From IMG/VR virus record IMGVR_UViG_3300045988_125893: 64,000 nucleotides of DNA; one strand, written 5' to 3'. The DNA is from a virus. The translations under genes were made by a program, and so were the position numbers. The notes beneath the pieces are model-generated. The model saw only the letters and a list, made by a program, of their open reading frames with translations. It made no database searches and had not been told where the DNA came from. Positions 1 through 21,903 of the stretch are shown in pieces (position 1 is the stretch's first letter; each line of letters opens with the position of its first letter).

Positions 1-270
1 ATGGACAATATGAACGTATATGATTTTGCACCTGATTTAGATTTAAGTAAAGAAGTAGCAGGTTCCATTTTTGGGGTAAGAGGAATGGAAGGTAGTGATG
101 GTATAGTGTATGCTAAGGTAGTTAGCTGTATAGACGTCAAGGATTACAGTTGTGAGAGATGTATTTTTTATGATTGTTATAAGGATACATGTTCGTTATG
201 GGGTAGTGATAGTTGTATAGATGGGGATTGGTTTTGTAGGTACGAACAGGCTGCCATAGAGGGGGAGTAG
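1..270 (+). CDS. hypothetical small Cys-rich protein (may be 5'-partial at window edge)
   Basis: ORF track; Cys pairs CERC..CYKDTC..C..C suggest metal binding. Confidence 0.5.
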   Translation: MDNMNVYDFAPDLDLSKEVAGSIFGVRGMEGSDGIVYAKVVSCIDVKDYSCERCIFYDCYKDTCSLWGSDSCIDGDWFCRYEQAAIEGE

Positions 271-275
271 GCGGC

Positions 276-332
276 GTCTTGGGCTAAGGCCTGCGGTTGT
301 AGGTGAAACGTAGGTCGGAGCAGAGCCGGGAC
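276..332 (+). other. imperfect long stem-loop E0 carrying the conserved loop motif GTGAAACGTAGG
   Basis: gtcttgg(276-282) pairs ccgggac(326-332) with G-U pairs; inner ctgc/gcag; loop motif shared with hairpins E1-E5. Confidence 0.35.
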
Positions 333-375
333 AGTTTATTGTGGAACGTAAAAATAAAAAGGAGGAGATAGCGAT

Positions 376-456
376 ATGAAAAAGGCATTTAAGATATTTT
401 CTATTATGTTCGTCATAGAAATAGTGCTGATAGCTATTTTAGATGCTATGGCGTAA
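376..456 (+). CDS. micro-ORF, 26 aa hydrophobic peptide MKKAFKIFSIMFVIEIVLIAILDAMA
   Basis: ATG at 376 preceded by aaaaaggaggagatagcgat (textbook SD, 7-nt spacer); lies in 330-nt structured noncoding region. Confidence 0.25.
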   Translation: MKKAFKIFSIMFVIEIVLIAILDAMA

Positions 457-497
457 GGGAGAAAAATTTCTTCATTAATTTTCTTATGCTTTAGACA

Positions 498-529
498 AAG
501 TGCTCCCGTCTGCGAAGATCGGAGCACTT
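498..529 (+). other. stem-loop E1: 9-bp stem aagtgctcc/ggagcactt, 14-nt loop cgtctgcgaagatc
   Basis: perfect complementarity read directly; loop shares CTG-GAAGAT core with E3/E4. Confidence 0.6.
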
Positions 530-534
530 GCTTT

Positions 535-603
535 ATGGGATTCATGGTGCGGTAGGTCGGTTCGATTCCGGCGATCTCACACAATATTAAAAACAAATGA
601 GGT
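535..603 (+). promoter_or_regulatory. tRNA T-arm/acceptor-like minihelix plus conserved leader, copy 1
   Basis: tgggatt(535-541)/gatctca(573-579) acceptor-like pairing around gtcgg-TTCGATT-ccggc T-arm; ~85% identical to 1806-1849; ends at ATG 604. Confidence 0.4.
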
Positions 604-1008
604 ATGTTAAAAGAAGAATTTGAAGACTTTATTAAAAGAGAGGTAAGTGATGAACTTTACAAAGATATAGAGGTGGTGTATAATGTTCTGCCTGAATATA
701 TGGATAAGTTGTATTTTGCAGACGCTATATTAAAAGATGTAGGGAAGACTGTAAATGTTTTGTCGGCTTTAGGAGTACACATACGTGAATTGAATAACGC
801 ACGCATAATCGAAAAAGAAAAGATTAGATCGTGTGCGTATGATTTGATACATAAGGCTCATGACGAAGATGATTTAACAGCAAGGGAGATTGCTGTTAAA
901 TTGATAGGAGAAAGGGAAACGGTAGCATATACTGTAAGGGAAGGTCTGCCATTATGGGAACAAGATAAAAAGTTTATAATAGAATTAATGAAGGAGGAAA
1001 GAAAATGA
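604..1008 (+). CDS. hypothetical protein
   Basis: ORF track 134 aa; SD-like tgaggt upstream. Confidence 0.6.
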   Translation: MLKEEFEDFIKREVSDELYKDIEVVYNVLPEYMDKLYFADAILKDVGKTVNVLSALGVHIRELNNARIIEKEKIRSCAYDLIHKAHDEDDLTAREIAVKLIGERETVAYTVREGLPLWEQDKKFIIELMKEERK

Positions 1009-1352
1009 AAGATGGCATTACATTGCATCCAGAACATGGATTGAACCCGTCTATAGAAGTCTGCATGATATGTGGTGCAGAGATGGGCATTGCCTTATTA
1101 GGGAATAATATTAAAGGTCAGGCGCCGCATCATATATGTACGGGCGGAGTATGTGACGATTGCAAAAAGATAATAGATGATGGTGGTTGTTTTATTATCG
1201 AGGTTGAAGATGGTTCAGATCAAAAGAATCCGTATCATACAGGAAGATATTGTGCGATAAAGAAAGGGGTAGCAAAGAAAATGTTTGGAAAGGAGCATAG
1301 TATTGTGTACATGGAAAAGTCTGCATTCAGTCAAATGATACCACAAAAATGA
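1005..1352 (+). CDS. hypothetical zinc-binding protein (CMICG...CDDC)
   Basis: ORF 115 aa; AAGGAGG SD upstream; ATGA overlap with previous gene. Confidence 0.6.
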   Translation: MKDGITLHPEHGLNPSIEVCMICGAEMGIALLGNNIKGQAPHHICTGGVCDDCKKIIDDGGCFIIEVEDGSDQKNPYHTGRYCAIKKGVAKKMFGKEHSIVYMEKSAFSQMIPQK

Positions 1353-1675
1353 AGAAGGATATGTTTACAAAAGAAGAAAGATTATTTATATGGAAACAAG
1401 TATATGATATAATCAATAGGTCAGAGAATGGGGAATACATATGCATTGCATTAAAAAATGTAGTATTTTATTTTTTCAAAAAACATAAAGAAATAGAAAT
1501 TATGAGTTTAGATGAAATGGTGAGAATATATTTCCCGGAATTGAGAGCAAGGAGAAGTATGGCTACAGAACCAGAGGAAATATGGAGGATATATGGATGG
1601 TTTGGTTGTATTAGTCCAGAAACGAAGGAGGTGAGACTGAATATTGTAAAAGATATTATAAAAGAATTAGAATAG
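1349..1675 (+). CDS. hypothetical protein
   Basis: ORF 108 aa, ATGA overlap. Confidence 0.6.
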   Translation: MKKDMFTKEERLFIWKQVYDIINRSENGEYICIALKNVVFYFFKKHKEIEIMSLDEMVRIYFPELRARRSMATEPEEIWRIYGWFGCISPETKEVRLNIVKDIIKELE

Positions 1676-1721
1676 TATTTTTGTTAACCTATTTTATTCA
1701 TCAAATTAAGTTTTGGGTTTT

Positions 1722-1759
1722 GGCATGTCGGTTCGTGAGGATAGGCATGCCTATTTTTA
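1722..1759 (+). terminator. stem-loop E2 (ggcatg/catgcc, 18-nt loop tcggttcgtgaggatagg) followed by tattttta
   Basis: perfect 6-bp GC stem plus T-run after gene ending 1675; loop motif GTGAGGATAGG. Confidence 0.55.
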
Positions 1760-1805
1760 TGTCATAGAGGGATGACGCGGCGTGCCGGCATGTATGTGCC
1801 GGTTC

Positions 1806-1849
1806 TGGTTCGATTCTGGGCATCTCACAAACAATAAAACAAAAGAGTT
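1806..1849 (+). promoter_or_regulatory. tRNA T-arm-like conserved leader, copy 2 (ctggTTCGATTctgggcatctcacaaacaataaaacaaaagagtt)
   Basis: near-identical to 556-603; preceded by hairpin gccggca/tgccggt (1784-1803); ends at ATG 1850. Confidence 0.4.
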
Positions 1850-2083
1850 ATGAGAATATACAAGAATGATATTATAAAGGCGTCAGCGATAAGCACCAGC
1901 GACGACAGGGGATTATTACTGTGTTCAATAACAGATTCGGGATTCACGTCTATAGCTGGTGTAATATCGGCTATTAAAGACAAGTTGCCAAACAAAGATC
2001 ATAAGAAGATGGTTTTTGAAATTTTGAATGATACGAAAAAAGAGTACGGAAGATATAATAATTGCGGAGGAAAAGTGTTATGA
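1850..2083 (+). CDS. hypothetical protein
   Basis: ORF 77 aa directly after conserved leader. Confidence 0.5.
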   Translation: MRIYKNDIIKASAISTSDDRGLLLCSITDSGFTSIAGVISAIKDKLPNKDHKKMVFEILNDTKKEYGRYNNCGGKVL

Positions 2084-2295
2084 GAAAAAATATAAAGAGC
2101 TTTTTATTGCCTTTAATATTGGCGAGTATGGTTGATGATCCTTATAGAGTAAGACGTATTCATAGTAACAATCATCCTAAACCAGTAAAAAGGGATGAAA
2201 AAAACAGGATAGAGAGGGAGTTTGATATTAATGGAAAGAAAATAATGGCTTATTCAAGAAAGGATGCCATTAAAAGATTAAAACATAAGAAGTAG
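2062..2295 (+). CDS. hypothetical basic protein
   Basis: ORF 77 aa. Confidence 0.45.
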   Translation: MRRKSVMRKNIKSFLLPLILASMVDDPYRVRRIHSNNHPKPVKRDEKNRIEREFDINGKKIMAYSRKDAIKRLKHKK

Positions 2296-2341
2296 AAAAC
2301 GGATTTTTATGTTAATGTTAGTTTTTTCATTTTTATTGAGA

Positions 2342-2382
2342 GGAGCGCCGGCCTGTGAAGGTATGCGCTCTTTGTATTTGTA
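2342..2382 (+). terminator. stem-loop E4 (ggagcgc/gcgctct, loop cggcctgtgaaggtat) plus ttgtatttgtat
   Basis: 7-bp stem with one G-U pair; 16-nt loop with conserved CTGTGAAGGTA. Confidence 0.55.
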
Positions 2383-2404
2383 TAATGCATAAAACAATAA
2401 TAAT

Positions 2405-2659
2405 ATGACAGAGAATAGTATAGACGTAAATATCGTACCTGTAAAGAATGGTATGAAACGTGTTGTGGTATCATATTACCATTATTCACGCAAGGAGAAA
2501 GATCGCATGAGTTCTCAAACGGATTACGTGTGGGAAACAGGGAATGAAGAGATGTTTAAATACTTTGAGGCCAGGAGGACAAAAGTATTTTATAGTCAGA
2601 TTCGTGCCATGTGTAGATTCTATGGCAAGAAAAATGTACGTAAATACAAAAAGCTATGA
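2405..2659 (+). CDS. hypothetical protein
   Basis: ORF 84 aa. Confidence 0.5.
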   Translation: MTENSIDVNIVPVKNGMKRVVVSYYHYSRKEKDRMSSQTDYVWETGNEEMFKYFEARRTKVFYSQIRAMCRFYGKKNVRKYKKL

Positions 2660-3465
2660 TATTAAAAACGACAACCAACGAGTTTTGTTTCATCAGCGTA
2701 AGTTTCTATGAAACAATAGCGGATCCTCGTCATTTCTTTGAACAGGATTATGAAGAGATGCCAGAATACGAGGAAGAAGCAGATTTTGATTTTGATTCTT
2801 ATTGCAATAAGTTTATTCCTTTTGTACAGGAATGGGCGAATAAGGTGGGCGAACACCTTTACGGATATGGTGTGAATAACATAAAGGTAACATCGGTCGG
2901 ACATCCGAGTGAATATAATTATGATACTGATTGGATGAATGTGGAGGTAGAATTTTGTGATAGATGGAGGCAAAGGATGTTATTTAATAGTGGTAAGATT
3001 GTCAATGATGATAAATGCAAGAAGTATATGGAAGCCAATTATAGGTCAGTATTAGGATACATCTTTTTAGGACCTGAAGATTTAAAGGAATTTGAAAAGG
3101 AAATAATAGAAAAGAAGTCGGATTCGAAATATGATATAACAATATTATTAAATATGTATCTAACTTTGGCTTTTGTAAAAGAATTTGGATTTGAAGCCGA
3201 AGAAGCGTGGAATGAAATAACAGGACATGCTTACGAATGTTTATCGTATTCTGATTTTGCAACAATAGAAACACTTATACCAGAAGGTTCGGAGTATTTA
3301 TTCAAAGACATTTACACGGCAAAGGCCGATGACTTATATCATCATGTCCTGGACAAATTTGGATGGGCGTGGCGTGATCCGAAATATAAGTCAGAAACAG
3401 AATTATGCGCGATGCTAAAGTGGGCAAAAGAAAAAGGCTTGACCATTGAAGAGTTAAGTATTTAA
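2656..3465 (+). CDS. hypothetical protein
   Basis: ORF 269 aa, ATGA overlap. Confidence 0.65.
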   Translation: MILKTTTNEFCFISVSFYETIADPRHFFEQDYEEMPEYEEEADFDFDSYCNKFIPFVQEWANKVGEHLYGYGVNNIKVTSVGHPSEYNYDTDWMNVEVEFCDRWRQRMLFNSGKIVNDDKCKKYMEANYRSVLGYIFLGPEDLKEFEKEIIEKKSDSKYDITILLNMYLTLAFVKEFGFEAEEAWNEITGHAYECLSYSDFATIETLIPEGSEYLFKDIYTAKADDLYHHVLDKFGWAWRDPKYKSETELCAMLKWAKEKGLTIEELSI

Positions 3466-3478
3466 TTGTTAAACATAA

Positions 3479-3525
3479 GGCAGTAGTGGTGCGTGAGTAT
3501 AGGTGCTGCCGTTAAATTATTTTAT
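3479..3525 (+). terminator. stem-loop E5 (ggcagta/tgctgcc, loop gtggtgcgtgagtatagg) plus T-rich tail
   Basis: 7-bp stem (one G-U); 18-nt loop with GTGAGTATAGG. Confidence 0.5.
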
Positions 3526-3528
3526 AAT

Positions 3529-3777
3529 ATGAAAAAGGAAGAGATTCAAACTATTTTATACACAATCAAAGAAGGAGACAGTATTAAGATCAAAGTACAA
3601 GACAAAAGTGAAGAAATAAGACTGCGGGATCATGTAAGAAGAACGCAGAAATACGGATACAGGTTTTGTTTGTCTCATTTGCATGATGGAATTTTCTATT
3701 TGGAGAAGTTGGAAGAGGGAGATAAAGATAAATACTATAGAGTAATCAACAGAGGAAATGGAAAGACCGGAGTATAA
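3529..3777 (+). CDS. hypothetical protein (start moved to ATG 3529; track ORF 3493 begins inside hairpin E5)
   Basis: ORF track frame; MKKEEIQ start after terminator. Confidence 0.5.
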   Translation: MKKEEIQTILYTIKEGDSIKIKVQDKSEEIRLRDHVRRTQKYGYRFCLSHLHDGIFYLEKLEEGDKDKYYRVINRGNGKTGV

Positions 3778-4051
3778 TAAGCTACGCAAAATGGCTAAGA
3801 CTACTCCAGGTCTGATAGTGGACGAGGCGCAAAACATGATGCGTGTATCGCTGTATGATAATGGAGAACTTAAGAAGATCGTAGTAGTAATGAAATGCGA
3901 TTCTTTTTTACAGTCAAAAAGTAACATAGAAAAGATAATGTTATTATCATCTTCTATAGAAGATAGAAAAAACAAAGAAAAAAATAAAACAAAATCAGAA
4001 AATGAACAGAATAACAAAAATAAGAGAAGAAATAGGAGGAAAACAGGTTGA
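3758..4051 (+). CDS. hypothetical Lys/Asn-rich basic protein
   Basis: ORF 97 aa; low complexity C-terminus. Confidence 0.4.
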   Translation: MERPEYNKLRKMAKTTPGLIVDEAQNMMRVSLYDNGELKKIVVVMKCDSFLQSKSNIEKIMLLSSSIEDRKNKEKNKTKSENEQNNKNKRRNRRKTG

Positions 4052-4385
4052 TTTGACCTTTTATGGGCGTTTTTGCAGCCTTATTGAAGGTGATAGAAAG
4101 ATAATACTAAAGGCAATAAAAAACGGTCGTAAGGAAGGTGTAATCGGAGCCATTCAGCCTGGAAGACATGATAGAATTTGGACCACATGGGCTATTGCTT
4201 TTGAGGATCTGAAGGTAGGGGATACGGTAGAGTTTAGTACATCCGGGAAATACAATCCAGGTTTTCATTCTACAGAAAAGTATGTAGGATGTGTAGAATG
4301 GATAAAAGGATCGGAATGTGCGATAAAAACCGGCAAAGGGATGGCAGTAGTATTAATTAAACACGTGGAAAGGGTAGTAAGATGA
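4002..4385 (+). CDS. hypothetical protein
   Basis: ORF 127 aa. Confidence 0.55.
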   Translation: MNRITKIREEIGGKQVDLTFYGRFCSLIEGDRKIILKAIKNGRKEGVIGAIQPGRHDRIWTTWAIAFEDLKVGDTVEFSTSGKYNPGFHSTEKYVGCVEWIKGSECAIKTGKGMAVVLIKHVERVVR

Positions 4386-4663
4386 AATTGAGAGAATTTG
4401 TAGAACTCTTTGATAAGAATGATGTAAAGGATTTGTTTAAGTCATTATCTTTATGTATGGAATATGTAAGGATAGATTTACATGTATTTAATGTAGGTGC
4501 TTATGTTACGTGCCTGTACAGTAATGATCTTGAACAGCTTTCAACGATGAAAGGGTGCGCTATATACGCGATAGTAGAAGTACCATGTTTATTTGAGGCA
4601 TTTATGGAATATGCTTCACCGGAATTGAAAGCATATTATGATAAACTAACGAAAGAAGTGTGA
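4382..4663 (+). CDS. hypothetical protein
   Basis: ORF 93 aa, ATGA overlap. Confidence 0.55.
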   Translation: MKLREFVELFDKNDVKDLFKSLSLCMEYVRIDLHVFNVGAYVTCLYSNDLEQLSTMKGCAIYAIVEVPCLFEAFMEYASPELKAYYDKLTKEV

Positions 4664-4664
4664 C

Positions 4665-5147
4665 ATGAAAGAGGAAGTAGAACGGATAAAGAAGTTGGTA
4701 GGCATAGATCATAATAGATGGGAGCAACCTTGTACATGTGATAAATGCAAGAACATGTGTAAGATTCCTTGTATTGGTACGCCAAAAGACATAGAGGCTA
4801 TCATAGATGCCGGATACGCTGATAGGTTAAAAGAAACAATGTGGATGGTAGGGTATCTTGCAGTGAAGGAAAAACCAATAGCGATGATCCAGCCGACAGA
4901 GAAAGACGGGTGGTGCGCATTCCGCCGGCCAGACGGTCTCTGCGAGCTGCATGACCGTGGACTAAAGCCGACCGAAGGAGTTCTGGCTTCCTGTAAGATG
5001 ATTGAAGAAGACAATGTTCCAACATACGAAACGTCTGTACTTAGAGCAGTGGCTAATGAGTGGGTTAAGGTGGAGAACTTTGGAGATATAATGAGGGTCG
5101 TTTTTAAATTTTTGCATGAAAATGAACGTAGAAAACAAATTAGATAA
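4665..5147 (+). CDS. hypothetical Cys-rich protein (CTCDKCKNMC...C motif, possible Fe/Zn chelating domain)
   Basis: ORF 160 aa; Cys cluster near N-terminus. Confidence 0.6.
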   Translation: MKEEVERIKKLVGIDHNRWEQPCTCDKCKNMCKIPCIGTPKDIEAIIDAGYADRLKETMWMVGYLAVKEKPIAMIQPTEKDGWCAFRRPDGLCELHDRGLKPTEGVLASCKMIEEDNVPTYETSVLRAVANEWVKVENFGDIMRVVFKFLHENERRKQIR

Positions 5148-5526
5148 AGTAGTTAAGATCCTAAAAGAAAAAGGATTTGTGGTATATAGAAAGGGCGGAA
5201 AGGAGCCGGGTGTATTTTACGCCAAAGAAGGTGACAGCCGGATAGGATTCGTTTATCCCAACAACGGATATATATATGATAGAATAAAAATGTGGTCTTT
5301 TTCAAGGATATATAAACCACATAAGAAAACCGGGTCTTCGTGTTTAATGAGCGTCAGCGACGAATTTACGATAGAGAATGCGATTAAGAACATAGAGGAT
5401 AGACTGTGGGTAAATTATGTAAAAGACGGTAACAGAAAACGACCAGAAGAATACAATAATATAAGAGAATTTGTTGGTAGCTTCACTAAATTCTACAACT
5501 CTGTAGAATTAGTTGAGGTTAAGTAG
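5116..5526 (+). CDS. hypothetical protein
   Basis: ORF 136 aa. Confidence 0.55.
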   Translation: MKMNVENKLDKVVKILKEKGFVVYRKGGKEPGVFYAKEGDSRIGFVYPNNGYIYDRIKMWSFSRIYKPHKKTGSSCLMSVSDEFTIENAIKNIEDRLWVNYVKDGNRKRPEEYNNIREFVGSFTKFYNSVELVEVK

Positions 5527-5547
5527 TTTTCCATGTAAGTTAGTTAC

Positions 5548-5583
5548 CGGCACTGGTCTGTGAAGATAGGTGTCGTTTTTTTT
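5548..5583 (+). terminator. stem-loop E3 (ccggcac/gtgtcgg, loop tggtctgtgaagatag) followed by T8
   Basis: 6-bp stem with one G-U pair, 16-nt conserved loop, tttttttt at 5576-5583. Confidence 0.7.
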
Positions 5584-5600
5584 AAGAAAGGAGGATAAAG

Positions 5601-5732
5601 ATGGAGAAAAGAGACAAGGAAATGCCTTACGAGGTAATCATACAGGAGAGAAACAAAGTGGATTTATACGGTAACGTAGTATATTATATCTATTGGTTTG
5701 ATAAATATGGGAACGATATTACAAACGAATGA
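5601..5732 (+). CDS. micro-ORF, 43 aa (MEKRDKEMPYEVIIQERNKVDLYGN...)
   Basis: ATG preceded by aaggaggataaag SD; not in track because <60 aa. Confidence 0.35.
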   Translation: MEKRDKEMPYEVIIQERNKVDLYGNVVYYIYWFDKYGNDITNE

Positions 5733-5939
5733 AAATTCTGGAGCAAGGGTCCGAAAAAGAAATATGATAGAGTCAATCGCTATTTAACGGATAGTTGGCT
5801 AAAGGAATACTGTAAGAACAACAATTTAAAAATAAGTAGAATAAAGGAATGAAGCCGGGAAAGCATGCTATGATAACAAACGAGTATGGTGTCTTGGATA
5901 TTATAAAAGAAAAATTTGACAACATAAATATAATGGAAT

Positions 5940-6308
5940 ATGGATCTAAATAAATTGTATAAAGAAATAGAAGAAGCGGAGGTCAATCTGAATGCAAAAA
6001 GATTAAAGTACATCAAAGAAGCATTAACGGAGAACGGTGGAAGCGTAAAGCTAAAATTTAAAGAGTTTAAAGAATGGCAAGAAGCTAATAACGTGTTTGA
6101 CTTTGATGATCAGTTTCCAGTGATAATAGAAATTGATGGAAATTCTATGTATTTAACGGAAGTGTATGTCAAAAAAAACGATTTTCGTGTAGTCATGCTG
6201 GATTATACTGATATGACTTTTTATGATTATAGCAATCCAGGGGAAAATGAACAGGTTGCTTATTTTATTAACTATTGCTTAAATCAAGACAAAGATGGGA
6301 AAGAGTAG
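5940..6308 (+). CDS. hypothetical protein
   Basis: ORF 122 aa. Confidence 0.55.
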   Translation: MDLNKLYKEIEEAEVNLNAKRLKYIKEALTENGGSVKLKFKEFKEWQEANNVFDFDDQFPVIIEIDGNSMYLTEVYVKKNDFRVVMLDYTDMTFYDYSNPGENEQVAYFINYCLNQDKDGKE

Positions 6309-6483
6309 AAAAGATTATGAGAAGTATCTTAACTCAATATCTCCAGATAGAGACGATGAGGCATGGATCATTGGAGGAAAGAACAGGTATTGCGGTAGAG
6401 AGAATTATGGCACTATGATCAAAAGGTATGATCCTATTGGTTTTAACGTGGGATACAGGGAGTGGGTGGAACAGCCAGAGTAA
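6295..6483 (+). CDS. hypothetical protein
   Basis: ORF 62 aa. Confidence 0.5.
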   Translation: MGKSRKDYEKYLNSISPDRDDEAWIIGGKNRYCGRENYGTMIKRYDPIGFNVGYREWVEQPE

Positions 6484-6485
6484 GG

Positions 6486-6539
6486 CGGAGCCCGCCCTGG
6501 CATGAGGTCAGCCTGGCTGTTTGTGGCCAGGCCCATATA
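6486..6539 (+). terminator. tandem GC hairpins (ggcgg-agc-ccgcc; gcctggc-tgtttgtg-gccaggc) with duplicated cctggc competing for one gccagg
   Basis: read directly; follows stop of 6295..6483. Confidence 0.5.
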
Positions 6540-6856
6540 TTAATCAGATAGTGAACAGCGAAAACAATATAAATATGAAAAATAAGTTAGTTCTTAATAG
6601 TGCAGAGGATGCTGAAATAATTTCAGTAAGATTAGATCCAGAGAGGTTTCCTATTGCATATGCAAACAAAGTAGAATGTTTGATGCTTTCCGGCTTAAGC
6701 GAAGAAGAAGCAAAGAAGGAGGCGATGATGCCAATAGACCTTGAATTGTATTATGAGGTAGGTGTAGGATTGATGGCCGTAGAGCCAGGGGCAGTAGAAT
6801 CTGGAACAATATACAGTCCATATACAAGAGAATTGTATGATAATGCAAAAGTTTGA
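6521..6856 (+). CDS. hypothetical protein (true start may be internal Met at ~6578)
   Basis: ORF 111 aa; first codons overlap the hairpin. Confidence 0.5.
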   Translation: MWPGPYINQIVNSENNINMKNKLVLNSAEDAEIISVRLDPERFPIAYANKVECLMLSGLSEEEAKKEAMMPIDLELYYEVGVGLMAVEPGAVESGTIYSPYTRELYDNAKV

Positions 6857-7332
6857 TAATTATGAGAGTAGAAGATTTAACTAAGTTTGAAGAAGAATGT
6901 CCCACCATAGTAGTATTTAATACATATATGGATATTAGGGTTCCACTAACGAAGAAATGGAAGAAAATCATTGACAAGAGAGAAGATAAGCCAAACACGT
7001 ATCATAATAATTTGATTAATTATATTTCAGAACAGATAGAGTTGTCCGGATTCAACATGAAAAGCGTCGGGAACCTATTAATAAAGAAAATAGTTTTCAA
7101 TAAAAACAATTACTACAGGTATAACAACATAGGAGGATTCCCTATAACTATCAACGATTTGGGATATTGGGATAAAAACAGAGTAAAGCTAAATGAAGAT
7201 TTTCACACTGTTAGGCTGTTTAATACGGTAAGTGTATATGGATTGATATTTGGATCCATAAAACAAAATAATTTCATTATGCTTGAAAACGATATAATGC
7301 AGATTAAGGTTGGCGGCATAACTTACATCTAA
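6853..7332 (+). CDS. hypothetical protein
   Basis: ORF 159 aa. Confidence 0.55.
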   Translation: MIIMRVEDLTKFEEECPTIVVFNTYMDIRVPLTKKWKKIIDKREDKPNTYHNNLINYISEQIELSGFNMKSVGNLLIKKIVFNKNNYYRYNNIGGFPITINDLGYWDKNRVKLNEDFHTVRLFNTVSVYGLIFGSIKQNNFIMLENDIMQIKVGGITYI

Positions 7333-14088: not shown

Positions 14089-14826
14089 ATGGAAAATCCA
14101 ATTATTGTTCCGTTTGATTTAAATACGGCGAGAAAAATTAAAAGCGGAGAAATAGAAGGTTCGGTATTAATAAACAATATTGAAATAGAATTTGCATATG
14201 AGTCGAAAGACTGTGCAGATTCTTATAATTTACTTTTTGTAAAAAAAGATGGACGTGGAATAAGTGCTGTATATGCTAACACAGAAGGTTGCACTCTTGG
14301 TAACTCCACTCTGGAATTGAAAGTGGAGGCTGGAGCATATTTTAAGAAAGGAGATGTATTAACAAGTACTCAAGGATGTCAATTTATATATGATGGAATT
14401 ATTACCAAAGGGGTAATGGGATGTATATGCGGAATGACAGCATTTGGAGATATTGAATTTGGTTACAAATTATGGACTGATGTGTATAGCGAAGATAAAA
14501 ATCGGAATGTAAGAAAGGCTATAGAAGAAGAGAAGAAATTTTTAGCAGAAAAGATTATAAAAGTCGCAGACAGTAGAAAAATAGATATAATAAAACAATA
14601 TTTAAGCGAATATGAGTATCTATTAGATGAGATGCCGAAACATGACTTCAAACCATTTGAACGAGTCTTGGTAAGAAGAACTAACCAAGAGAGGTGGAAA
14701 TTGCATTTATTCTCCAGAGGATCAAGAACATATGACGAATATGAATGTTTGGGAGGCGTAACATTTAGTCAGTGTATCCCATACGAAGGAAACGAACATC
14801 TTTTAGGAACTAATAAAAACAAATAA
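14089..14826 (+). CDS. hypothetical protein, tandem paralog A
   Basis: ORF 245 aa; shares PFDLxTAxKIxxGE N-terminus and FKPFxxVLVR...CIPxEGNExLL C-terminus with 14831..15592. Confidence 0.65.
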   Translation: MENPIIVPFDLNTARKIKSGEIEGSVLINNIEIEFAYESKDCADSYNLLFVKKDGRGISAVYANTEGCTLGNSTLELKVEAGAYFKKGDVLTSTQGCQFIYDGIITKGVMGCICGMTAFGDIEFGYKLWTDVYSEDKNRNVRKAIEEEKKFLAEKIIKVADSRKIDIIKQYLSEYEYLLDEMPKHDFKPFERVLVRRTNQERWKLHLFSRGSRTYDEYECLGGVTFSQCIPYEGNEHLLGTNKNK

Positions 14827-14830
14827 GATT

Positions 14831-15592
14831 ATGGAACATAAAATGGTAACAATCCCGTTTGATTTAGAAACGGCAAAGAAAATAAGAAAAGGCGAAAGAT
14901 TAGGTCAGATTGTGGCAGAGAAAGGACGAAATAGAGCAGAAATAGTATATGAAGATGATTTGTGTAATGCATATCCTTTATTGGTTGTAATTCATTCGAT
15001 TCCTGTATTAGCGGATTGGTTTTCGTCCACGGGGAAAGCGTTTAACGACGCAAATCGTCTTCTTCTTGAAGTTCCAGAATATGTCACATTCAAAGATGGA
15101 GATGTGCTAAGCGACGAAGAAGGAAATTATATTTTTATCTTAAATACTAATGGGAAATATTTAACATCTTTGTATGCGAGTCTTGCAGCGGGAACAAGTC
15201 TTAATATATCGGATGATATTGCTGCAAACGAAAACAATATAGAACGTTATAGACTTGCAACAGATTCGGAAAAACAGAGGATAATTAAAGCGTTAAAGAA
15301 AAGCGAAAATCCTAAAGCAAAAAAATATCTAAAACGCTTCTTCGGAATTGAAGAAAAGCCGAAATGTGAGTTTAAGCCGTTTGACAAAGTGCTGGTAAGA
15401 AAAGAAGGAAATAAAAAATGGAATATCAGTTTGTTTGCAAGGGAAATTGTGGACGATTATAATGGATTGCCTTATAAGTATGAATGTTCCAATGGAACAT
15501 TATGGGACTATTGCATTCCTTTTGAGGGCAATGAATGTCTTTTAGAAACTGCTGAAAATCCAGAAAAAAATGAAAACGGTAAAATTATCTGA
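14831..15592 (+). CDS. hypothetical protein, tandem paralog B
   Basis: ORF 253 aa; see paralog A. Confidence 0.65.
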   Translation: MEHKMVTIPFDLETAKKIRKGERLGQIVAEKGRNRAEIVYEDDLCNAYPLLVVIHSIPVLADWFSSTGKAFNDANRLLLEVPEYVTFKDGDVLSDEEGNYIFILNTNGKYLTSLYASLAAGTSLNISDDIAANENNIERYRLATDSEKQRIIKALKKSENPKAKKYLKRFFGIEEKPKCEFKPFDKVLVRKEGNKKWNISLFAREIVDDYNGLPYKYECSNGTLWDYCIPFEGNECLLETAENPEKNENGKII

Positions 15593-15764
15593 TTTTTCTC
15601 CTTATGACAGAAACAAAGGAGGAATACAAGAATTGCATCATAAAATTGAGTCCAAAACACTTCAGTATTGGAGTGGAGATATTGGTATTCTGATTGGCAT
15701 CACTCCGATATATAAGAGACATTTGTGGAGCGAAGAAGTAAATGTTATAAATGATAAACAATAA
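15570..15764 (+). CDS. hypothetical protein
   Basis: ORF 64 aa. Confidence 0.4.
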   Translation: MKTVKLSDFSPYDRNKGGIQELHHKIESKTLQYWSGDIGILIGITPIYKRHLWSEEVNVINDKQ

Positions 15765-15766
15765 AT

Positions 15767-16045
15767 ATGAAAACAAGAACATACGAAGGAATACGGCATG
15801 GTGACTGGGTAAGATGTACTCAATGTGGAGCGCAAATGCTTCTTCCATGTGGAGCCGACAAGTGTCCCGAATGTTATGAATGTGGCACGTTGATGTGGGT
15901 AGACGAAGATAAGCAAGAAATGGACGATGAACATCTGGATTGTCTGGGTCCTATGCGTAAATTGAGACTGGAGGATTATTTGTCTTCAGACGTGTTGGCG
16001 ATAGAGTATAGTGAATATTACAGACAATTAAATAGGAGAGGATAG
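15767..16045 (+). CDS. hypothetical zinc-ribbon protein (CTQCG...CPECYECG)
   Basis: ORF 92 aa. Confidence 0.55.
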   Translation: MKTRTYEGIRHGDWVRCTQCGAQMLLPCGADKCPECYECGTLMWVDEDKQEMDDEHLDCLGPMRKLRLEDYLSSDVLAIEYSEYYRQLNRRG

Positions 16046-16050
16046 GTGAT

Positions 16051-16311
16051 ATGAAGAAGAAATATAATAAAGAATATATAGAACATTCCCGGAAACAAAT
16101 CCGGAATGTTCTGAACGATGAGGAAGAATATGATGATTGGACTCAGATTTGTTTCTCCATGAAAGATGTGGTTCAGGCGGCTGCGAACGTGTGGGGAATG
16201 TCCAGCGATGAAGAGATACATAAAATGCACAGATTCTTTCAGGAGTTGTGTTATATTGAACTAAAGCGTTTACAGACTTTTGATATAACCTTTAAAAAGA
16301 AGGAATCATAG
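16051..16311 (+). CDS. hypothetical protein
   Basis: ORF 86 aa. Confidence 0.5.
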   Translation: MKKKYNKEYIEHSRKQIRNVLNDEEEYDDWTQICFSMKDVVQAAANVWGMSSDEEIHKMHRFFQELCYIELKRLQTFDITFKKKES

Positions 16312-16346
16312 ATAAAACAAACATCGTGATATAATAGATAATTAAC

Positions 16347-16646
16347 ATGAAAATCGAATACATACAAAAATGTAAATGCGGAGCAGTCACTATCAGTTTT
16401 GATAATGGTGCTTCAAATAGCATGTTTTTGGAAACATTTGAAAAATTAGATTTGGATACTGGTGATGCCACATGGCTTCAACAGTCCTGCTGCTGCGATC
16501 ACTGCGTCAATCACTGGGGGATAGATCTGTGTGAGTGTGGATCAGGACAGAAGGTGGGAGAATGTGAATGTGGATCCCAAAAGGCACATGATACATTGGG
16601 AATTGAATATGATTCCTTTGGAGCAATTTTAAAAGCATTTAGATAG
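16347..16646 (+). CDS. hypothetical Cys-rich protein (CKCG...CCCDHC...CECG...CECG)
   Basis: ORF 99 aa. Confidence 0.55.
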   Translation: MKIEYIQKCKCGAVTISFDNGASNSMFLETFEKLDLDTGDATWLQQSCCCDHCVNHWGIDLCECGSGQKVGECECGSQKAHDTLGIEYDSFGAILKAFR

Positions 16647-16649
16647 ATT

Positions 16650-17132
16650 ATGTACATATTGAGTAAATATACAGCCCTTTTAGGGCAAAAAAAGTTAAAA
16701 GAAGATTTTGTAAAAGAGTTATCATTGATACTTTCAAAATCTGATGGATACCAAATAGTTCCAGGTAAATTAACTTTTGTGTATTTTTCGGAGTTAAAAG
16801 ATTGGTCAGTTAGAGATATGGGTAATCAAGGGAAATTATCAGAAGAAGATGAGGCTTTGATAAACAAAGTAACCCATATGTTATTTGATATCAATTGTGA
16901 TTTTGAATCTGTTATAAGAATGTTATACAGCTTTCGTAATGGTCCTAAATCGGGAATAAAAGTAGCGGATCCAGAAGATAACTACGAATGGACTAACAAG
17001 GATGGAAATGAAAAATATTCTACTAAGAATCTTCCGAAAGCACATTTTAGATGGAATTGGAGAAGATATACTTTATCAAAGGAATCTGTTGACAAAATAA
17101 CAGAGTTTGTAGACATTATATTAAAATCATAG
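16650..17132 (+). CDS. hypothetical protein
   Basis: ORF 160 aa. Confidence 0.55.
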   Translation: MYILSKYTALLGQKKLKEDFVKELSLILSKSDGYQIVPGKLTFVYFSELKDWSVRDMGNQGKLSEEDEALINKVTHMLFDINCDFESVIRMLYSFRNGPKSGIKVADPEDNYEWTNKDGNEKYSTKNLPKAHFRWNWRRYTLSKESVDKITEFVDIILKS

Positions 17133-17135
17133 CTT

Positions 17136-17540
17136 ATGAGAAACGAATTTAGAGAAATAGAAAAGACATTGCAATTAATCAACGAACAGAGAAAAGCGGC
17201 TGAAGAGAAGTTAAAATATATCGTAAACATGGCAATAGTAGATGCTTCGAAGGATTATCCTGTAAAGAGATTGGGACCAAATATTATATCAGTAAGGTTT
17301 TCAGATCTTATAGGGAATCCCTGGAACCAGCAGTATTATGACTGGGTGGAGGCTTCGAAAGTAGTAATGAAATATTTGAGCGAACAGGATGCCGACAAAT
17401 GGAAAGACAAATTGATCGAATTGTTGGGAGGAGACACAGAATCGAGAAAACCGGTTATGTTTAAAAACGGGAAAGGAGGATGCTTTTATCAAATACCAGT
17501 AAACAGAAAATTCATTGTTAAAATCATAGAGAAATTATGA
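17136..17540 (+). CDS. hypothetical protein
   Basis: ORF 134 aa. Confidence 0.55.
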   Translation: MRNEFREIEKTLQLINEQRKAAEEKLKYIVNMAIVDASKDYPVKRLGPNIISVRFSDLIGNPWNQQYYDWVEASKVVMKYLSEQDADKWKDKLIELLGGDTESRKPVMFKNGKGGCFYQIPVNRKFIVKIIEKL

Positions 17541-17791
17541 ACGAAGTAATTTTAAGCAACATGTTAGGATGTCAGACATATTGTATATCAGACAGTCCTT
17601 CGAATAGATACTGTCTTATTGGACCTATTGAGTGCAATGAGAAGTTAATAGAAATGTTTAAGAAGGGAATAATAGTAAAACTCAAACACGTGGAAAAACG
17701 GGTCCTGGATACATTTACGAATAATGGAATTGACCTGAGTAATTACACTCACTGTATTATTGTGAAGCGGGATTTTTATCTCGCCTGGTAA
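17537..17791 (+). CDS. hypothetical protein
   Basis: ORF 84 aa. Confidence 0.5.
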   Translation: MNEVILSNMLGCQTYCISDSPSNRYCLIGPIECNEKLIEMFKKGIIVKLKHVEKRVLDTFTNNGIDLSNYTHCIIVKRDFYLAW

Positions 17792-18029
17792 CAGAAAAAC
17801 ATAAATGACATGAACAATTTTGTAATAGATACTCCTGATAACTTCTGGCAAATAAGATGGCTTGACAAATACATGGAAGGTCATATAAGTATAAGGGATA
17901 TGGTTACAATACGTGTAGGGAGACAAAGAAAAAGCTTCTGCAAGCTCTTAAGGGTGTGAATGTAGAAGAGGAAGACGTATCTTTGTATGCTGATGGAGGA
18001 TAGGATTAATTGAAAAAAAATAGAATATT

Positions 18030-18866
18030 ATGAGTGCAAGTAAAGAATACAAAATAATAAGAAACTTCATATTAAATGAGCTTCACATTACAAAAGAAGA
18101 CATAATCAAAAACATAGAACCATTATTGGAAAAACTTGTAAAACAGTGTATGAATAATACATATGGGAATAACAATCAAATAGAGTATTGGATCAGATGT
18201 ATGGTTAATGACGAACTTAAACAAAGAGATTTTGATTTTGTAAGAAGAATATGTAAGGAGGTTATAAAAGATCATGTGTTGAATGAGTTGAACATAATTG
18301 TAAGTCCCAAAAATGAAAGATGCGTATGTGAAAATAGAGTACCATCAAGAAAAGATGGTTTGTATCTAATCTATGGAAACGGACACGCTGAGCCGTTTAC
18401 TAGAGAGAATTTCAAAAAGAATGTGTGTTATATCGGATTAAAACACAAAGACGTATCGTTTGCTATCTCGCTGACGGAGCATGATAGAGTACAATTGCTT
18501 GACGATGATAGCCGTAAAGAATCCGGAAGTGAGACATATTACGAACGTGAATGTGATGCGCTGTTTGACATTAATGGACGCGGCAATACGGAACGCCTTG
18601 TAGTCAGAAATCCAAAATTGAGAAATCTACTGAAAGATGGCGAATACATCCCTTCGTTGAGACAGCTCAATCTAATGGCGCATTACAAAGACAGTATAAA
18701 CGATGCGCTTAAATACATAGGCGCAGAACCGTTAGCCTCGGCGTGGTTTTGGTCCAGTACTGAGAGCAGTCAGTACAACGCGTGGTACGTGTACTTCTTC
18801 ATTGGCGACACGGGCAGCTACAGCAAGTACGGCAGTGGCAGGGTTCGGGCGGTAATTGATTTTTAA
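18030..18866 (+). CDS. hypothetical protein with DUF1566-like C-terminus (FWSSTESSQYNAWYVYFFIGDTGSYSKYGSGRVRAV)
   Basis: ORF 278 aa; C-terminal WSST..AW.V.F..G...K...VR.V pattern recalled from DUF1566 (Lcl-like) domains. Confidence 0.6.
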   Translation: MSASKEYKIIRNFILNELHITKEDIIKNIEPLLEKLVKQCMNNTYGNNNQIEYWIRCMVNDELKQRDFDFVRRICKEVIKDHVLNELNIIVSPKNERCVCENRVPSRKDGLYLIYGNGHAEPFTRENFKKNVCYIGLKHKDVSFAISLTEHDRVQLLDDDSRKESGSETYYERECDALFDINGRGNTERLVVRNPKLRNLLKDGEYIPSLRQLNLMAHYKDSINDALKYIGAEPLASAWFWSSTESSQYNAWYVYFFIGDTGSYSKYGSGRVRAVIDF

Positions 18867-18878
18867 AAAGGATTACAT

Positions 18879-19685
18879 ATGATAACATCAGTAAAAATAA
18901 AAGACAACACAAAAACTCCATTTGAATATGTTTCTGACATAGAGGCGTTTGAAAATGGCAGAGAATTTATTTTCAAGCCAGGAGTGAATGTGATTATAGG
19001 GAAAAACGGTAGTGGAAAATCAACTTTACTTAACATCATATCAATGTATGCGTTATGTGATAAGTCCATGTGCTCTGAAATGCCGGATGAGGCGCTGGAT
19101 TTTCCACCTATATTTGATGATGATGACAAGGTTCTTGATGGGATTGATATATCATCCGATTATATAGGGAAAGTATTCCGTTTATTGCCGTCAACGGAGA
19201 CAAATCGAGATAGTGTATTAAAAAACATCAGCAATTTCGATTTGTATGCGAATAGTATTCAAAAATCTTATGGGGAAAAAGTGGTGTTATCACTGGAATC
19301 GCTTTTCAATTTAATGTTCAACCAAAAGGATTATGCGTTTCCAATGCAAGATCTTGCAGAATACAAGAAAAAATCAAATGCGTTTTGGATTAAAAGAATT
19401 GACAACCTGTTGAAGTATTATAGAAGGAACTGCATAACATTAACAGAAAGCAGTTTTGAGTACACGGTTCTCATGGATGAGCCAGACAGGAACCTTGACA
19501 TTGACAACATAATGCAGATTCACAATGTATTGTCATTTCATAAACCACAAACACAAATTATAGCCATAATACACAATCCGGCATTGATTTACAAATTAAG
19601 CAAATTAGATTGTGTGAATTTCATAGAGATGACAGAAGGGTATCTAAAGGATATTACCAATTTTATAAACGAAACAAATAAATGA
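18879..19685 (+). CDS. compact ABC-type ATPase (RecF/OLD/AAA_21-like)
   Basis: Walker A GKNGSGKST; signature-like SYGEK; Walker B VLMDEPDRNLD; H-loop IIAIIHNP; 268 aa. Confidence 0.75.
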   Translation: MITSVKIKDNTKTPFEYVSDIEAFENGREFIFKPGVNVIIGKNGSGKSTLLNIISMYALCDKSMCSEMPDEALDFPPIFDDDDKVLDGIDISSDYIGKVFRLLPSTETNRDSVLKNISNFDLYANSIQKSYGEKVVLSLESLFNLMFNQKDYAFPMQDLAEYKKKSNAFWIKRIDNLLKYYRRNCITLTESSFEYTVLMDEPDRNLDIDNIMQIHNVLSFHKPQTQIIAIIHNPALIYKLSKLDCVNFIEMTEGYLKDITNFINETNK

Positions 19686-19691
19686 AAGATC

Positions 19692-20042
19692 ATGAGAAAA
19701 GAACTGAAAATGATAGGATCAAAAGATCGACACATATTCATAGCGACATTCATTCGTTTTGGATTTAGGGATGGGTATAAAGGATCCGTAGAGACAATAC
19801 TTTTGCAAGACGTGTTACTCGATGGTAAAGTGGTAACAGACCATTTGTGGTTTGATTTGACAAAAGGATTCAAAAGCGCCGATTTGTCACCAGGCGATGT
19901 GGTTGAGTTCTGCGCAAGGGTTAGTGTTTACGAGAAAGGATATAAAGGATACAGGAATGACGTATTTGATAGACCGATAGAAAAGGATTATCGATTGTCA
20001 AGACCAACAAAGATTAAGAAGATTGGGAAAAAATCAATATAA
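19692..20042 (+). CDS. hypothetical protein immediately downstream of ATPase
   Basis: ORF 116 aa. Confidence 0.55.
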   Translation: MRKELKMIGSKDRHIFIATFIRFGFRDGYKGSVETILLQDVLLDGKVVTDHLWFDLTKGFKSADLSPGDVVEFCARVSVYEKGYKGYRNDVFDRPIEKDYRLSRPTKIKKIGKKSI

Positions 20043-20065
20043 CATAAATAAAATCACTTATCGCA

Positions 20066-20449
20066 ATGGCTTATTTTGTCTTAATGGGAAGAAGAATCCC
20101 AAAACAAGCCGTAACAGGCTTCAAGTTTCAAAATGAAACAGATAACATTCGTCCTTTCCTGTCAATCAGGATAAGAGGGAAGGAGGAAATTATACCCCTT
20201 AAAGATAAAAGAGAAATACTGTCCGTGAAAGCACATCTGTGCTCTGTCTTCTCCGGGTTTGTGAAAATAGGCGACTGGTATCTCAAGATGTCGGAAGTTA
20301 AGGAATATAAGCCGGTGACTGCCGAAGACATGAACCCCTACATCTTGTTTAAGACATCTAAGTTCGGAAATATAAAAGTTCGTTTTCCGAAAGATGAAGA
20401 TATGAATGCGGAATTGTTGGTGCTAGATCAACTTTTTGACGTAGAATGA
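20066..20449 (+). CDS. hypothetical protein
   Basis: ORF 127 aa. Confidence 0.55.
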   Translation: MAYFVLMGRRIPKQAVTGFKFQNETDNIRPFLSIRIRGKEEIIPLKDKREILSVKAHLCSVFSGFVKIGDWYLKMSEVKEYKPVTAEDMNPYILFKTSKFGNIKVRFPKDEDMNAELLVLDQLFDVE

Positions 20450-20490
20450 ATTAGTAAGGTAATTATATACCTAAAATAATATAAAGAGAT

Positions 20491-20754
20491 ATGAGCAAAT
20501 ACAGAACAAAAGCCGGAATAGAATGCACGGAAGAAGAATGCAAGCTAATTGATTCATTTAAGAGGCTTGCCAAAAAATGGAAGAAAGATGGAAAACGATT
20601 GTGGATATATTCAGCAAGCGGAACATTACATGTAATGATGCATGGAGATACAAACTATAATCCCACACCGGAATTTACGCAATATGGAGGCAGTAACATT
20701 GAAAATAGTATAACCATCATTGATGGAATACCAAATGATGGCGGAGATTGGTAA
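20491..20754 (+). CDS. hypothetical protein
   Basis: ORF 87 aa. Confidence 0.5.
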   Translation: MSKYRTKAGIECTEEECKLIDSFKRLAKKWKKDGKRLWIYSASGTLHVMMHGDTNYNPTPEFTQYGGSNIENSITIIDGIPNDGGDW

Positions 20755-20781
20755 TAATATTCATTTTTAAAAGTTAGAGTT

Positions 20782-21018
20782 ATGAAAAAAGATTTAACAG
20801 ACAAAGAAAAAGAGGAAAGAATGAATTACCTTACCATCCATAAATGTAAAAACGAGGATGAACGTAAAGAGTTAAAAGAATTATGTGATTGGTATTTTAA
20901 GGATACTCCTACGTTAACTATGTCTTTTTCTTTAACAGAAGAAGATCTTTCGGGTAACAATGGAAGGGGACGTGGAGTTGTCGGCGGTAGTCGGAGCTGT
21001 GAAGCGTCAACACCTTAA
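20782..21018 (+). CDS. hypothetical protein
   Basis: ORF 78 aa. Confidence 0.45.
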   Translation: MKKDLTDKEKEERMNYLTIHKCKNEDERKELKELCDWYFKDTPTLTMSFSLTEEDLSGNNGRGRGVVGGSRSCEASTP

Positions 21019-21037
21019 GAAGAAAATTTGAAAGGTT

Positions 21038-21241
21038 ATGACTGACAGAGAACTTCTTGAAGAAAACAATAAGATGTTAAAGGAAATTCTAAGTTTTGTG
21101 AGAAAAGTCGATTCTACTGAATACAGGGATCATCAAGACTTTATGGAATTTCTTAGAAATGTGGCGGCCGATATATGGGTGGAATATACGGAGCCTGAAC
21201 AAAGAAGTAAGTTGTTTAATTTAATAAATAAAGAAAAATGA
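21038..21241 (+). CDS. hypothetical protein
   Basis: ORF 67 aa. Confidence 0.5.
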   Translation: MTDRELLEENNKMLKEILSFVRKVDSTEYRDHQDFMEFLRNVAADIWVEYTEPEQRSKLFNLINKEK

Positions 21242-21903
21242 AAACAGTTTTTGATTTAAGCAGAGATGAGATTACGGCATTGACAGACGAAGACATAAGT
21301 CTGTATATAGACAAAGAGCTTGCTAATAAAGGTATTCCAATTGAAGCTAAAAACTGGAATATAAAGAACAAAAAAGAAATCTCGTACCCCAAAACAGGAG
21401 TTCCATTATTTGTATTAAAAGATATCGGCATCGGTTTTAGAACCATAGAAGGTGCAACTGAGGTGGCCAATTTGCTTGTCAAGTATAATGCATTTAAAAC
21501 AGAATCGAGATATCTGGCAGGATCGTATGAACAGTTTTGGATCATGAAGGAGGGTGTTTGCCCGGCTGTTAAAGGAGAAACAGGATATAGCGAGGAAGAG
21601 TTTAATAAGATAGATGAGAAAAATAAAAACCCTGAATTGACAAGTATAAATACCTTCAATGACACCGTGAAAAAAGCCAATGAAATCAAAGATAGGGTAT
21701 TGAAATACGTGTACAATATAAAACAAGAGCGTTCATATAACAACGACATGGTTGGCATCTTTGAGAGGTATAAGGATATAGCAGATGGCGACATGGAGGT
21801 GGCTATGAATTTCATTAAGGAGGCTTATCCGTTTAATGAAGAAACAGAGGTATTTATCAGGAAAAAGTTCAACATGTCCATACCAGTTGAGCCAGAAGAG
21901 TAA
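21238..21903 (+). CDS. hypothetical protein
   Basis: ORF 221 aa, ATGA overlap. Confidence 0.6.
   Translation: MKTVFDLSRDEITALTDEDISLYIDKELANKGIPIEAKNWNIKNKKEISYPKTGVPLFVLKDIGIGFRTIEGATEVANLLVKYNAFKTESRYLAGSYEQFWIMKEGVCPAVKGETGYSEEEFNKIDEKNKNPELTSINTFNDTVKKANEIKDRVLKYVYNIKQERSYNNDMVGIFERYKDIADGDMEVAMNFIKEAYPFNEETEVFIRKKFNMSIPVEPEE

Follow-up and report, generated by a model that had tools for sequence, protein, structure and literature searches.

A solitary ABC-type ATPase among exchangeable early genes of a phage

Four genes lie close together at positions 18030-20449 of IMG/VR record IMGVR_UViG_3300045988_125893, a 64,000-nucleotide (nt) stretch of viral DNA that is referred to here as the window; the second of them, gene B, encodes a compact ATPase of the ATP-binding cassette (ABC) type. 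The locus raises the question of whether the four genes act together, as a sequence-only reading had proposed in calling them a candidate phage-borne defense or anti-defense module, and if not, what the ATPase does by itself. The four open reading frames (ORFs) and the downstream spacers of 6 and 23 nt are as that reading had given them; the module was not borne out. In the block, accessory genes that are exchanged independently of one another have come to lie side by side in a lineage-specific way, and B itself is solitary and accessory: dispensable in nature, horizontally spread among very different phages and carried in a hypervariable early gene region. The interpretation favoured here, taken as a whole and with a probability of about 0.45, is that of a solitary, dispensable and mobile ATPase which most likely acts as an ATP switch; a role in counter-defence or host takeover is its weaker part. 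The genes are as follows, with lengths in amino acids (aa) and isoelectric points (pI) where relevant.

Gene A, 18030-18866, + strand: 278 aa; C-terminus DUF1566/Lcl_C-like below threshold; lineage-specific neighbour, not a partner of B
Gene B, 18879-19685, + strand: 268 aa, pI 5.0; stand-alone ABC-type ATPase, alone among the four in being conserved across phage lineages
Gene C, 19692-20042, + strand: 116 aa, pI 9.65; small basic OB-fold protein, optional neighbour of B
Gene D, 20066-20449, + strand: 127 aa; lineage-specific neighbour with no fold or function assigned

Distribution of the four genes

One hundred loci recovered via the ATPase were divided by the identity of their ATPase to B: 40 loci with >80% make up the close clade, 42 with 66-71% the sister clade and 18 with 44-65% a distant group. 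The neighbours found in each were as listed.

Close clade: A adjacent in 34/40, C adjacent in 11/37, D near in 31/37
Sister clade: A adjacent in 0, C adjacent in 29/41, D near in 0
Distant loci: A in 0, C in 0, D in 0

This sample was chosen through the ATPase itself, and a second was therefore drawn independently of B, its contigs being picked via the neighbouring gene at 21238-21903; 72 contigs carried enough upstream sequence and displayed the following gene patterns.

A-B-D: 37 contigs
A-B-C-D: 14 contigs
B-D: 6 contigs
A-B-C: 3 contigs
A-B: 2 contigs
A-D: 1 contig
D only: 1 contig
None of the four: 8 contigs

The ATPase is present in 62/72 and missing from 10/72 of these close relatives. 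Such natural dispensability fits an accessory role, without telling which accessory role. The deletions have various extents: locus L184 is without window positions 18987-20046 (most of B plus C) and has kept A and D, L187 is deleted for 15565-20046, L229 for 17883-21038 and L160 for 14101-20758, and the flanks of such variants are typically ~80-98% identical to the window. Compared over window positions 14101-21038, these four loci could serve as ready-made isogenic comparisons; the question of function is experimentally tractable because natural near-isogenic variants with and without B exist and related Bacteroides phages have been cultured.

A single defence or anti-defence system formed by A, B, C and D and powered by the ATPase is suggested by the tight spacing and shared direction of the genes, and A-B-D, with or without C, is the commonest arrangement in close relatives (51/72). 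The distribution data contradict it: the complete set occurs in just 8/37 close loci of the ATPase-chosen sample and 14/72 contigs of the second, the sister clade has neither A nor D, and there are natural variants in which A and D occur while B is missing, or in which B and D occur while A is missing. Each of A, C and D is also found elsewhere without B. When the ORFs of 37 diverse loci, representing 20 ATPase clades (<60% identity), were clustered, no consistently adjacent family was detected, as in two earlier rounds of clustering around the ATPase; A, C and D accompany it in none of the 19 further clades. One family of ~200-225 aa with no function assigned, phrog_874, is found within a few kb of the ATPase in five clades, at variable offsets and not next to it. 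The early region is an unbroken co-directional gene array (spacers of 12 nt between A and B, 6 nt between B and C, and 23 nt between C and D), in which promoter-like and terminator-like sites were no more frequent than in shuffled controls, as judged by a tool that does not model Bacteroides-type promoters; tight spacing in a phage early-gene array of this kind is no evidence of a functional module. The four-gene system is effectively excluded.

The ATPase and its family

The catalytic elements of B are given below with their residue numbers, together with the stop codon that separates B from C. The residues called invariant are those shared across a close alignment of 16 relatives at 48-90% identity.

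Walker A (P-loop), 18999..19025, + strand: GKNGSGKST, residues 41-49; G41, N43, G44, G46, K47, S48 and T49 invariant
Signature-like motif, 19266..19280, + strand: SYGEK, residues 130-134; S130, G132 and E133 invariant; starts a helix spanning residues 131-148 in the model
Walker B and D-loop, 19467..19499, + strand: VLMDEPDRNLD, residues 197-207; T196, L198 and D200-D207 invariant; catalytic Glu at 201
H-loop (switch), 19557..19580, + strand: IIAIIHNP, residues 227-234; Q226, I228 and H232 invariant, A229 and N233 nearly so
Stop codon of B, 19683..19685, + strand: TGA; C continues in the same reading frame two codons further

B is a genuine ABC-type ATPase. All four motifs quoted in the sequence-only reading are present, their key residues are invariant across the 16 relatives, and they follow the canonical ABC order of Walker A, C-loop, Walker B with its Glu, D-loop and H-loop; a C-terminal E250...G254-Y255 is invariant as well. 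In a distant alignment of 13 relatives at 25-34% identity most motif residues are still invariant, including the Ser and Gly of the signature. A canonical Q-loop glutamine was not identified in B; the strand that would correspond ends in an invariant D94-Y95. The AlphaFold model features an ABC nucleotide-binding fold (predicted local distance difference test, pLDDT, 82; predicted template modelling score, pTM, 0.83) with a helical insertion of ~45 residues that follows the signature helix, precedes the Walker B strand and contains helices 156-164 and 168-184.

Among Pfam profiles, AAA_23 matches B at 38.7 bits (cut-off 27) over residues 22-159, corresponding to profile positions 8-149 of 201, and AAA_21 at 28.8 bits (cut-off 27) over the P-loop only; SMC_N at 39.5 bits is just short of its cut-off of 40, ABC_tran at 24.6 bits is below 25, and AAA_15 at 17.8 bits is below 32.1. 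The profile search thus agrees with the description of B as a small ABC ATPase that is of the kind gathered in SMC_N, AAA_23, AAA_21 and AAA_15 and lacks a fused nuclease. No NCBIfam family scored above its cut-off, PHROGs gave no informative family, and a search of PDB sequences with B, by phmmer and by profile, returned motif-only matches.

Homologues of B form 684 clusters at 90% identity, single ones of which hold hundreds to thousands of metagenomic copies; at 50% identity there are 2614 representatives at E<=1e-3, 659 at E<=1e-10 and 183 at E<=1e-30. In the best 150 representatives the full-length matches are nearly all single-domain proteins of ~245-310 aa, and members are typically ~250-290 aa without an extra domain. 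The back-translated DEPDRNLD pattern is specific to the family, as 92/120 of its metagenome matches are family members. The clusters at 50% identity, at least 183 in number, range from ~40-kb temperate-phage-like genomes up to 350-kb jumbo phages, with the human gut and other environments as metagenome sources. Wherever the surroundings of the gene were inspected they are phage-like: small temperate-phage-like genomes of ~24-27 kb upward that also encode SSB, Ant, portal and terminase proteins, one prophage-like stretch of a metagenome-assembled genome, ~150-kb phages, and jumbo phages of 200-350 kb. A scan of bacterial genomes for B gave, among the matches listed, three weak and irrelevant ones. 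The family is a large, uncharacterised and phage-restricted one of compact ABC ATPases, among the more abundant uncharacterised protein families of gut phages. It is an uncharacterised variant inside a very well-known superfamily, and an orphan ATPase among early genes is unsurprising to the specialist; the literature searched contained nothing on phage csAssE-Sib, the relative described below, nor on stand-alone phage ABC ATPases as anti-defence proteins.

The sole clearly longer member in the top 150 representatives is P0261, a metagenomic protein of 443 aa, whose extra length is an acidic low-complexity C-terminal tail of ~170 residues with no folded domain. In loci L012-L016, one group of the small temperate-phage-like genomes, the ATPase is immediately preceded at ~3343-4991, across a 9-nt gap, by two radical-SAM genes encoding 203-226 aa and 343 aa. 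In the closely related L002-L007 these genes are missing, and the start of the ATPase is overlapped by an ORF of 81 aa. Directly 3' of a divergent family member, on the - strand of L330 (2617-11490), are six tandem paralogues of 405-434 aa with a leucine-rich-repeat-like pattern and a weak match to Pfam LRR_14.

Possible roles of the ATPase

An ATP-driven switch in the form of a head-to-head dimer is the most likely mechanism for B, since none of its ABC catalytic elements varies; two ATPs would be bound between two heads, an arrangement common to all ABC ATPases that have been characterised, and hydrolysis would return the dimer to its starting state. B has no transmembrane, nuclease or coiled-coil part, and its output would therefore be the binding or release of another macromolecule. 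This target may be nucleic acid, or a complex bound to it, as hinted at by the optional OB-fold neighbour encoded behind B. The protein is a complete ABC engine without a visible output module; its target would reveal a new use of the ABC switch, and, if that target is host immunity, a new class of anti-defence.

The hint comes from gene C, whose product forms a closed five-stranded beta-barrel of OB topology and is comparable to the nucleic-acid-binding OB-fold domains of SSB, RPA, PriB, the MCM N-terminal domain and Ten1/Stn1; it has no match in Pfam, PHROGs, NCBIfam or PADLOC. Homologues of C also exist apart from the ATPase, on the one hand in an element that carries an integrase, on the other near NAD-salvage genes. 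The second setting is L106 (a contig of GCA_001045155.1, positions 1-7127), in which a C homologue of 56% identity and no ATPase is surrounded by NAD-synthase, NAPRTase, isochorismatase, a gene of the CTP_transf_like nucleotidyltransferase family and NUDIX genes, with an AcrVA2-like gene next to it; this looks like a neighbourhood of NAD reconstitution and anti-defence.

An in-frame TGA lies between B and C in 12/13 close loci that carry C. Its position is taken by Arg in P0003 and by Trp in P0007, giving B-C fusions of 388 aa; with P0014, which likewise has Arg or Trp in place of TGA, the single B-C proteins are 388-390 aa long. In the sister clade a 391-aa ATPase-C fusion is seen in 6/30 loci with an adjacent C. 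Recoding of the stop codon was considered and rejected: TGA ends 19/57 long ORFs on the + strand and 5/14 on the other strand of the window. It thus serves as a normal stop codon, and B and C of the window are two distinct proteins. At the sister-clade junction (~5790-5807), L017, L072 and L092 differ from L058 and others by A7 versus A6 in AATAAAAAA(A)TAAG, which may be due to misassembly, reflect a true polymorphism or mark a slippery site. The fusions were rejected as strong evidence for a complex, as those of the close clade are singletons and the sister-clade forms differ by one homopolymer A; they are weak evidence for a partnership of B and C.

Within the switch model, a role in host takeover or counter-defence, rather than in a defence system, is put forward tentatively. 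It is favoured because the family has been seen in phage contexts only, lacks the effector on which bacterial ABC-ATPase immune systems depend, and is located in an early plasticity zone shared, in the sister clade, with Tad3. In L017 (3963-4736; also in L018-L020), from sister-clade phages of ~150 kb, a 257-aa protein matches Pfam Tad3, a family of type I Thoeris inhibitors, with E = 4e-34; its gene is positioned just 5' of the ATPase, with one 79-aa DUF2400-like fragment between the two. Tad3-Tad8 are inhibitors of Thoeris (PMC13243611). No Tad3 homologue was found among the window proteins scanned.

Several points weigh against this interpretation. The counter-defence role is argued by guilt by association from one sister clade, and B has no characterised homologue. 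The dimer mechanism is extrapolated from the superfamily. B is acidic (pI 5.0), which is atypical for DNA-binding ABC heads. C is not next to most close-clade ATPases (26/37), its adjacency to B is seen in two related clades only and may simply be inherited, and the B-C fusions are rare, the close-clade ones being singletons and the sister-clade ones possibly an assembly error (A7/A6). Finally, in the small temperate-phage-like genomes the ATPase sits in the SSB operon, upstream of nothing diagnostic, a placement that suits a role in DNA metabolism equally well.

A more specific form of counter-defence, and a long shot, is that the family is a widespread and so far overlooked class of minimal ABC heads which would act as decoy or poison subunits, or as ATP-driven strippers of sensors from phage DNA. 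The decoy would be aimed at PARIS AriA, Septu or retron PtuA, Gabija GajA, or the SMC heads of Lamassu or Wadjet; in the stripper variant the OB-fold protein C would act as an optional DNA-targeting adaptor. Compatible with this proposal are the likeness of B to the sensors in the dimerising ATP core only, its effector-less, phage-only, acidic and dispensable nature, and its place in an early plasticity zone, beside a Tad3-family gene in a sister clade. Overall, counter-defence or takeover is slightly favoured, with a helper of DNA metabolism ranked second and an exclusion gene third.

The second-ranked explanation, unlikely yet the best of the alternatives, is that B helps in DNA replication, recombination or repair as a minimal ATP-dependent clamp resembling a RecF or Rad50 head; with or without C, it would load on or protect phage single-stranded DNA or DNA ends during early replication. 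The operon shared with SSB would suit such a helper. Compared with the heads of SMC, Rad50, RecF and RecN, B is without coiled coil, zinc hook, kleisin, and Mre11 or RecOR partners.

The third-ranked explanation, that B alone or with C is an exclusion or abortive-infection gene which senses and blocks a competing phage, has precedents in OLD for P2 and in PARIS when phage-encoded; it is considered rather improbable. The ATPase is accessory and horizontally mobile and occurs in prophage-like and temperate-phage-like contexts, as such a gene might, and its N-terminal region resembles the profiles of AriA, PtuA, GajA, LmuB, mad3 and HEC-02A. Set against this, the ATPase is frequent as well in jumbo phages and in large phages that look virulent, and in no clade was an effector such as TOPRIM or HNH found, whether fused to the ATPase or next to it. 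PADLOC profiles were run on the proteins of A to D and on 13 distant family members. B matches mad3, AriA, HEC-01A/02A, LmuB, PtuA and GajA with best E-values of 2e-16 to 1e-8 (down to 2e-17 among the distant members), and nearly all of the best stretches are ~30-40 residues round the P-loop; 13/13 distant members match the same top profiles, with the P-loop-only pattern seen in the member for which alignments were shown. A, C and D have no PADLOC match. The known defence systems were rejected as identities for the locus on these results, all matches of B and the 13 distant members being at the level of the P-loop ATPase, and the PADLOC run on the four genes upholds the earlier statement that the block matches no described system. 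The proposed kinship with the AriA, PtuA and GajA/OLD ATPases stands in so far as the profiles do match, and is confined almost wholly to the P-loop segment.

The individual systems differ from B as follows. PARIS AriA matches residues 33-62 (profile positions 26-55 of 253) and 36-102 (profile positions 1-83 of 304), and AriA in the PDB matches residues 34-56 only; AriA is a protein of 464 aa in solved structures (~53 kDa), a length that the 268-aa B does not reach. The TOPRIM nuclease AriB was not found next to B, and A, C and D have no nuclease match in PADLOC or Pfam. For Septu and retrons, the PtuA profile match is confined to residues 28-60, and neither the HNH protein PtuB nor a retron reverse transcriptase could be recognised in A, C or D. 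For Gabija and OLD, the C-terminal TOPRIM domain is missing, as B ends 34 residues past the H-loop, and the GajA match is again P-loop only. The longest match is that of Lamassu LmuB, from B residues 2-145 to profile positions 5-127 of 611, still less than a quarter of the profile; the coiled coil of LmuB, SMC and Rad50 is missing from the B model, in which ~80 residues lead from Walker A to the signature. The best match, MADS mad3 (E = 2.3e-16), pairs residues 24-63 with profile positions 13-50 of 374, and the other MADS components were not detected among A, C and D. In general B is at most half the size of AriA, PtuA, GajA, OLD, LmuB and mad3 (approximately half for the first three), has no insertion domain, and is without TOPRIM, HNH, partner nuclease or helicase; its D-loop is LD, like that of Rad50, SMC and the transporters, and its family is found in phages, unlike the ATPases of bacterial defence islands.

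The readings of B as the nucleotide-binding subunit of an ABC transporter (a metabolic gene) or as a terminase-associated packaging ATPase are contradicted by their missing partners and effectively excluded: no permease or membrane-transporter Pfam family lies beside the ATPase in any gene table, the ABC transporter models of NCBIfam score <=36 bits against cut-offs >200, the PHROG matches are P-loop only, and the virion genes are >25 kb away on the other strand. No housekeeping or terminase-partner family, which would have displaced the sequence-only reading, was recovered; the lone terminase-related match, phrog_800, is confined to the P-loop with E = 1.4e-4. The ABC domains of transporters and ABCF proteins (HmuV, EttA and VmlR) give motif-only sequence matches and differ from B in the ~45-residue helical insertion between the signature helix and Walker B; B neither has a membrane partner nor is it tandemly duplicated. 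Of the structures in the viral library, the one most similar to B is a 279-aa 'ABC transporter domain-containing protein' (A0A384ZW49) of Dickeya phage vB_DsoM_JA13, with a Foldseek E of 5.7e-9 and TM-scores of 0.65/0.63. It is also a solitary phage protein of similar length; the two share 19% identity only, and the JA13 protein is uncharacterised too, hence no function can be transferred.

Genes A and D and the genome setting

The C-terminus of A matches Pfam Lcl_C (PF07603, DUF1566) at 23.9 bits (E = 5.4e-5), below the cut-off of 34.9, and four homologues of A match the same profile at the same C-terminal place with 21.8-26.1 bits (E of 1e-5 to 2.5e-4), likewise below threshold. The DUF1566 resemblance noted earlier is real and recurrent, and always sub-threshold and partial. 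In A and these homologues it is the last 40-70 residues that align, to the end of the profile, and one homologue, from Bacteroides phage BS-TP1, is annotated as DUF1566; the alignment takes in no more than the final third to half of the domain, and the csAssE-Sib homologue of A is annotated as DUF3988. The N-terminal 200 residues of A have no match, and a PDB search with A was empty. A adjoins B in the close clade alone among the clades compared, and homologues of 34-40% identity are encoded by Bacteroides phages F1, F2, F4 and BS-TP1, all of which are without the ATPase. D has no match in Pfam, PHROGs, NCBIfam, PADLOC or the PDB; it is near B in the close clade alone, is kept in L184 where B is deleted, and has a homologue of 59% identity in MT835500, a genome without the ATPase.

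The window is from a phage and is 89% identical over the four-gene stretch to phage csAssE-Sib, which has a 151-kb genome and comes from the human gut; the window phage is a human-gut phage as well, with a genome of roughly 150 kb. The host is probably a Bacteroides, because A-like proteins are found in cultured Bacteroides phages. From position 1 to ~45 kb the + strand carries small early genes without an assigned role and then a replication and recombination block containing exonucleases, a DnaB-like helicase and a helicase; the virion genes occupy the - strand from 45.4 kb. The minus-strand block is opened by an ORF of 2138 aa at 45416-51832 (-), with a PHROG 'virion structural protein' match of E = 8e-76, and GC skew and AT skew both change sign at the strand switch near 45 kb, tracking the direction of transcription.

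No paralogues of A to D were found within the 64-kb window. Across the variable zone of 11.7-22.7 kb and the replacement segments of the deletion variants, family searches returned DUF4494 alone, besides sub-threshold matches that are probably due to chance. The same zone includes, at 16347-16646, a 99-aa Cys-rich protein with several CxxC, CxC and CC motifs, which is probably metal-binding, is conserved in the close clade and has no family match. At 17810-17959 there is an ORF of 49 codons whose start is identical to that of a nucleotidyltransferase gene (MNNFVIDTPDNFWQIRWLDKYMEGH...) and which diverges afterwards. Its counterpart in csAssE-Sib is 220 aa long and annotated as 'polyA polymerase / CCA-adding enzyme', and the window therefore keeps a deletion remnant only; in the relative P0012 the N-terminus of the nucleotidyltransferase counterpart is called in frame with the ATPase. 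An intact copy of this polyA polymerase/CCA-adding gene could matter for tRNA repair.

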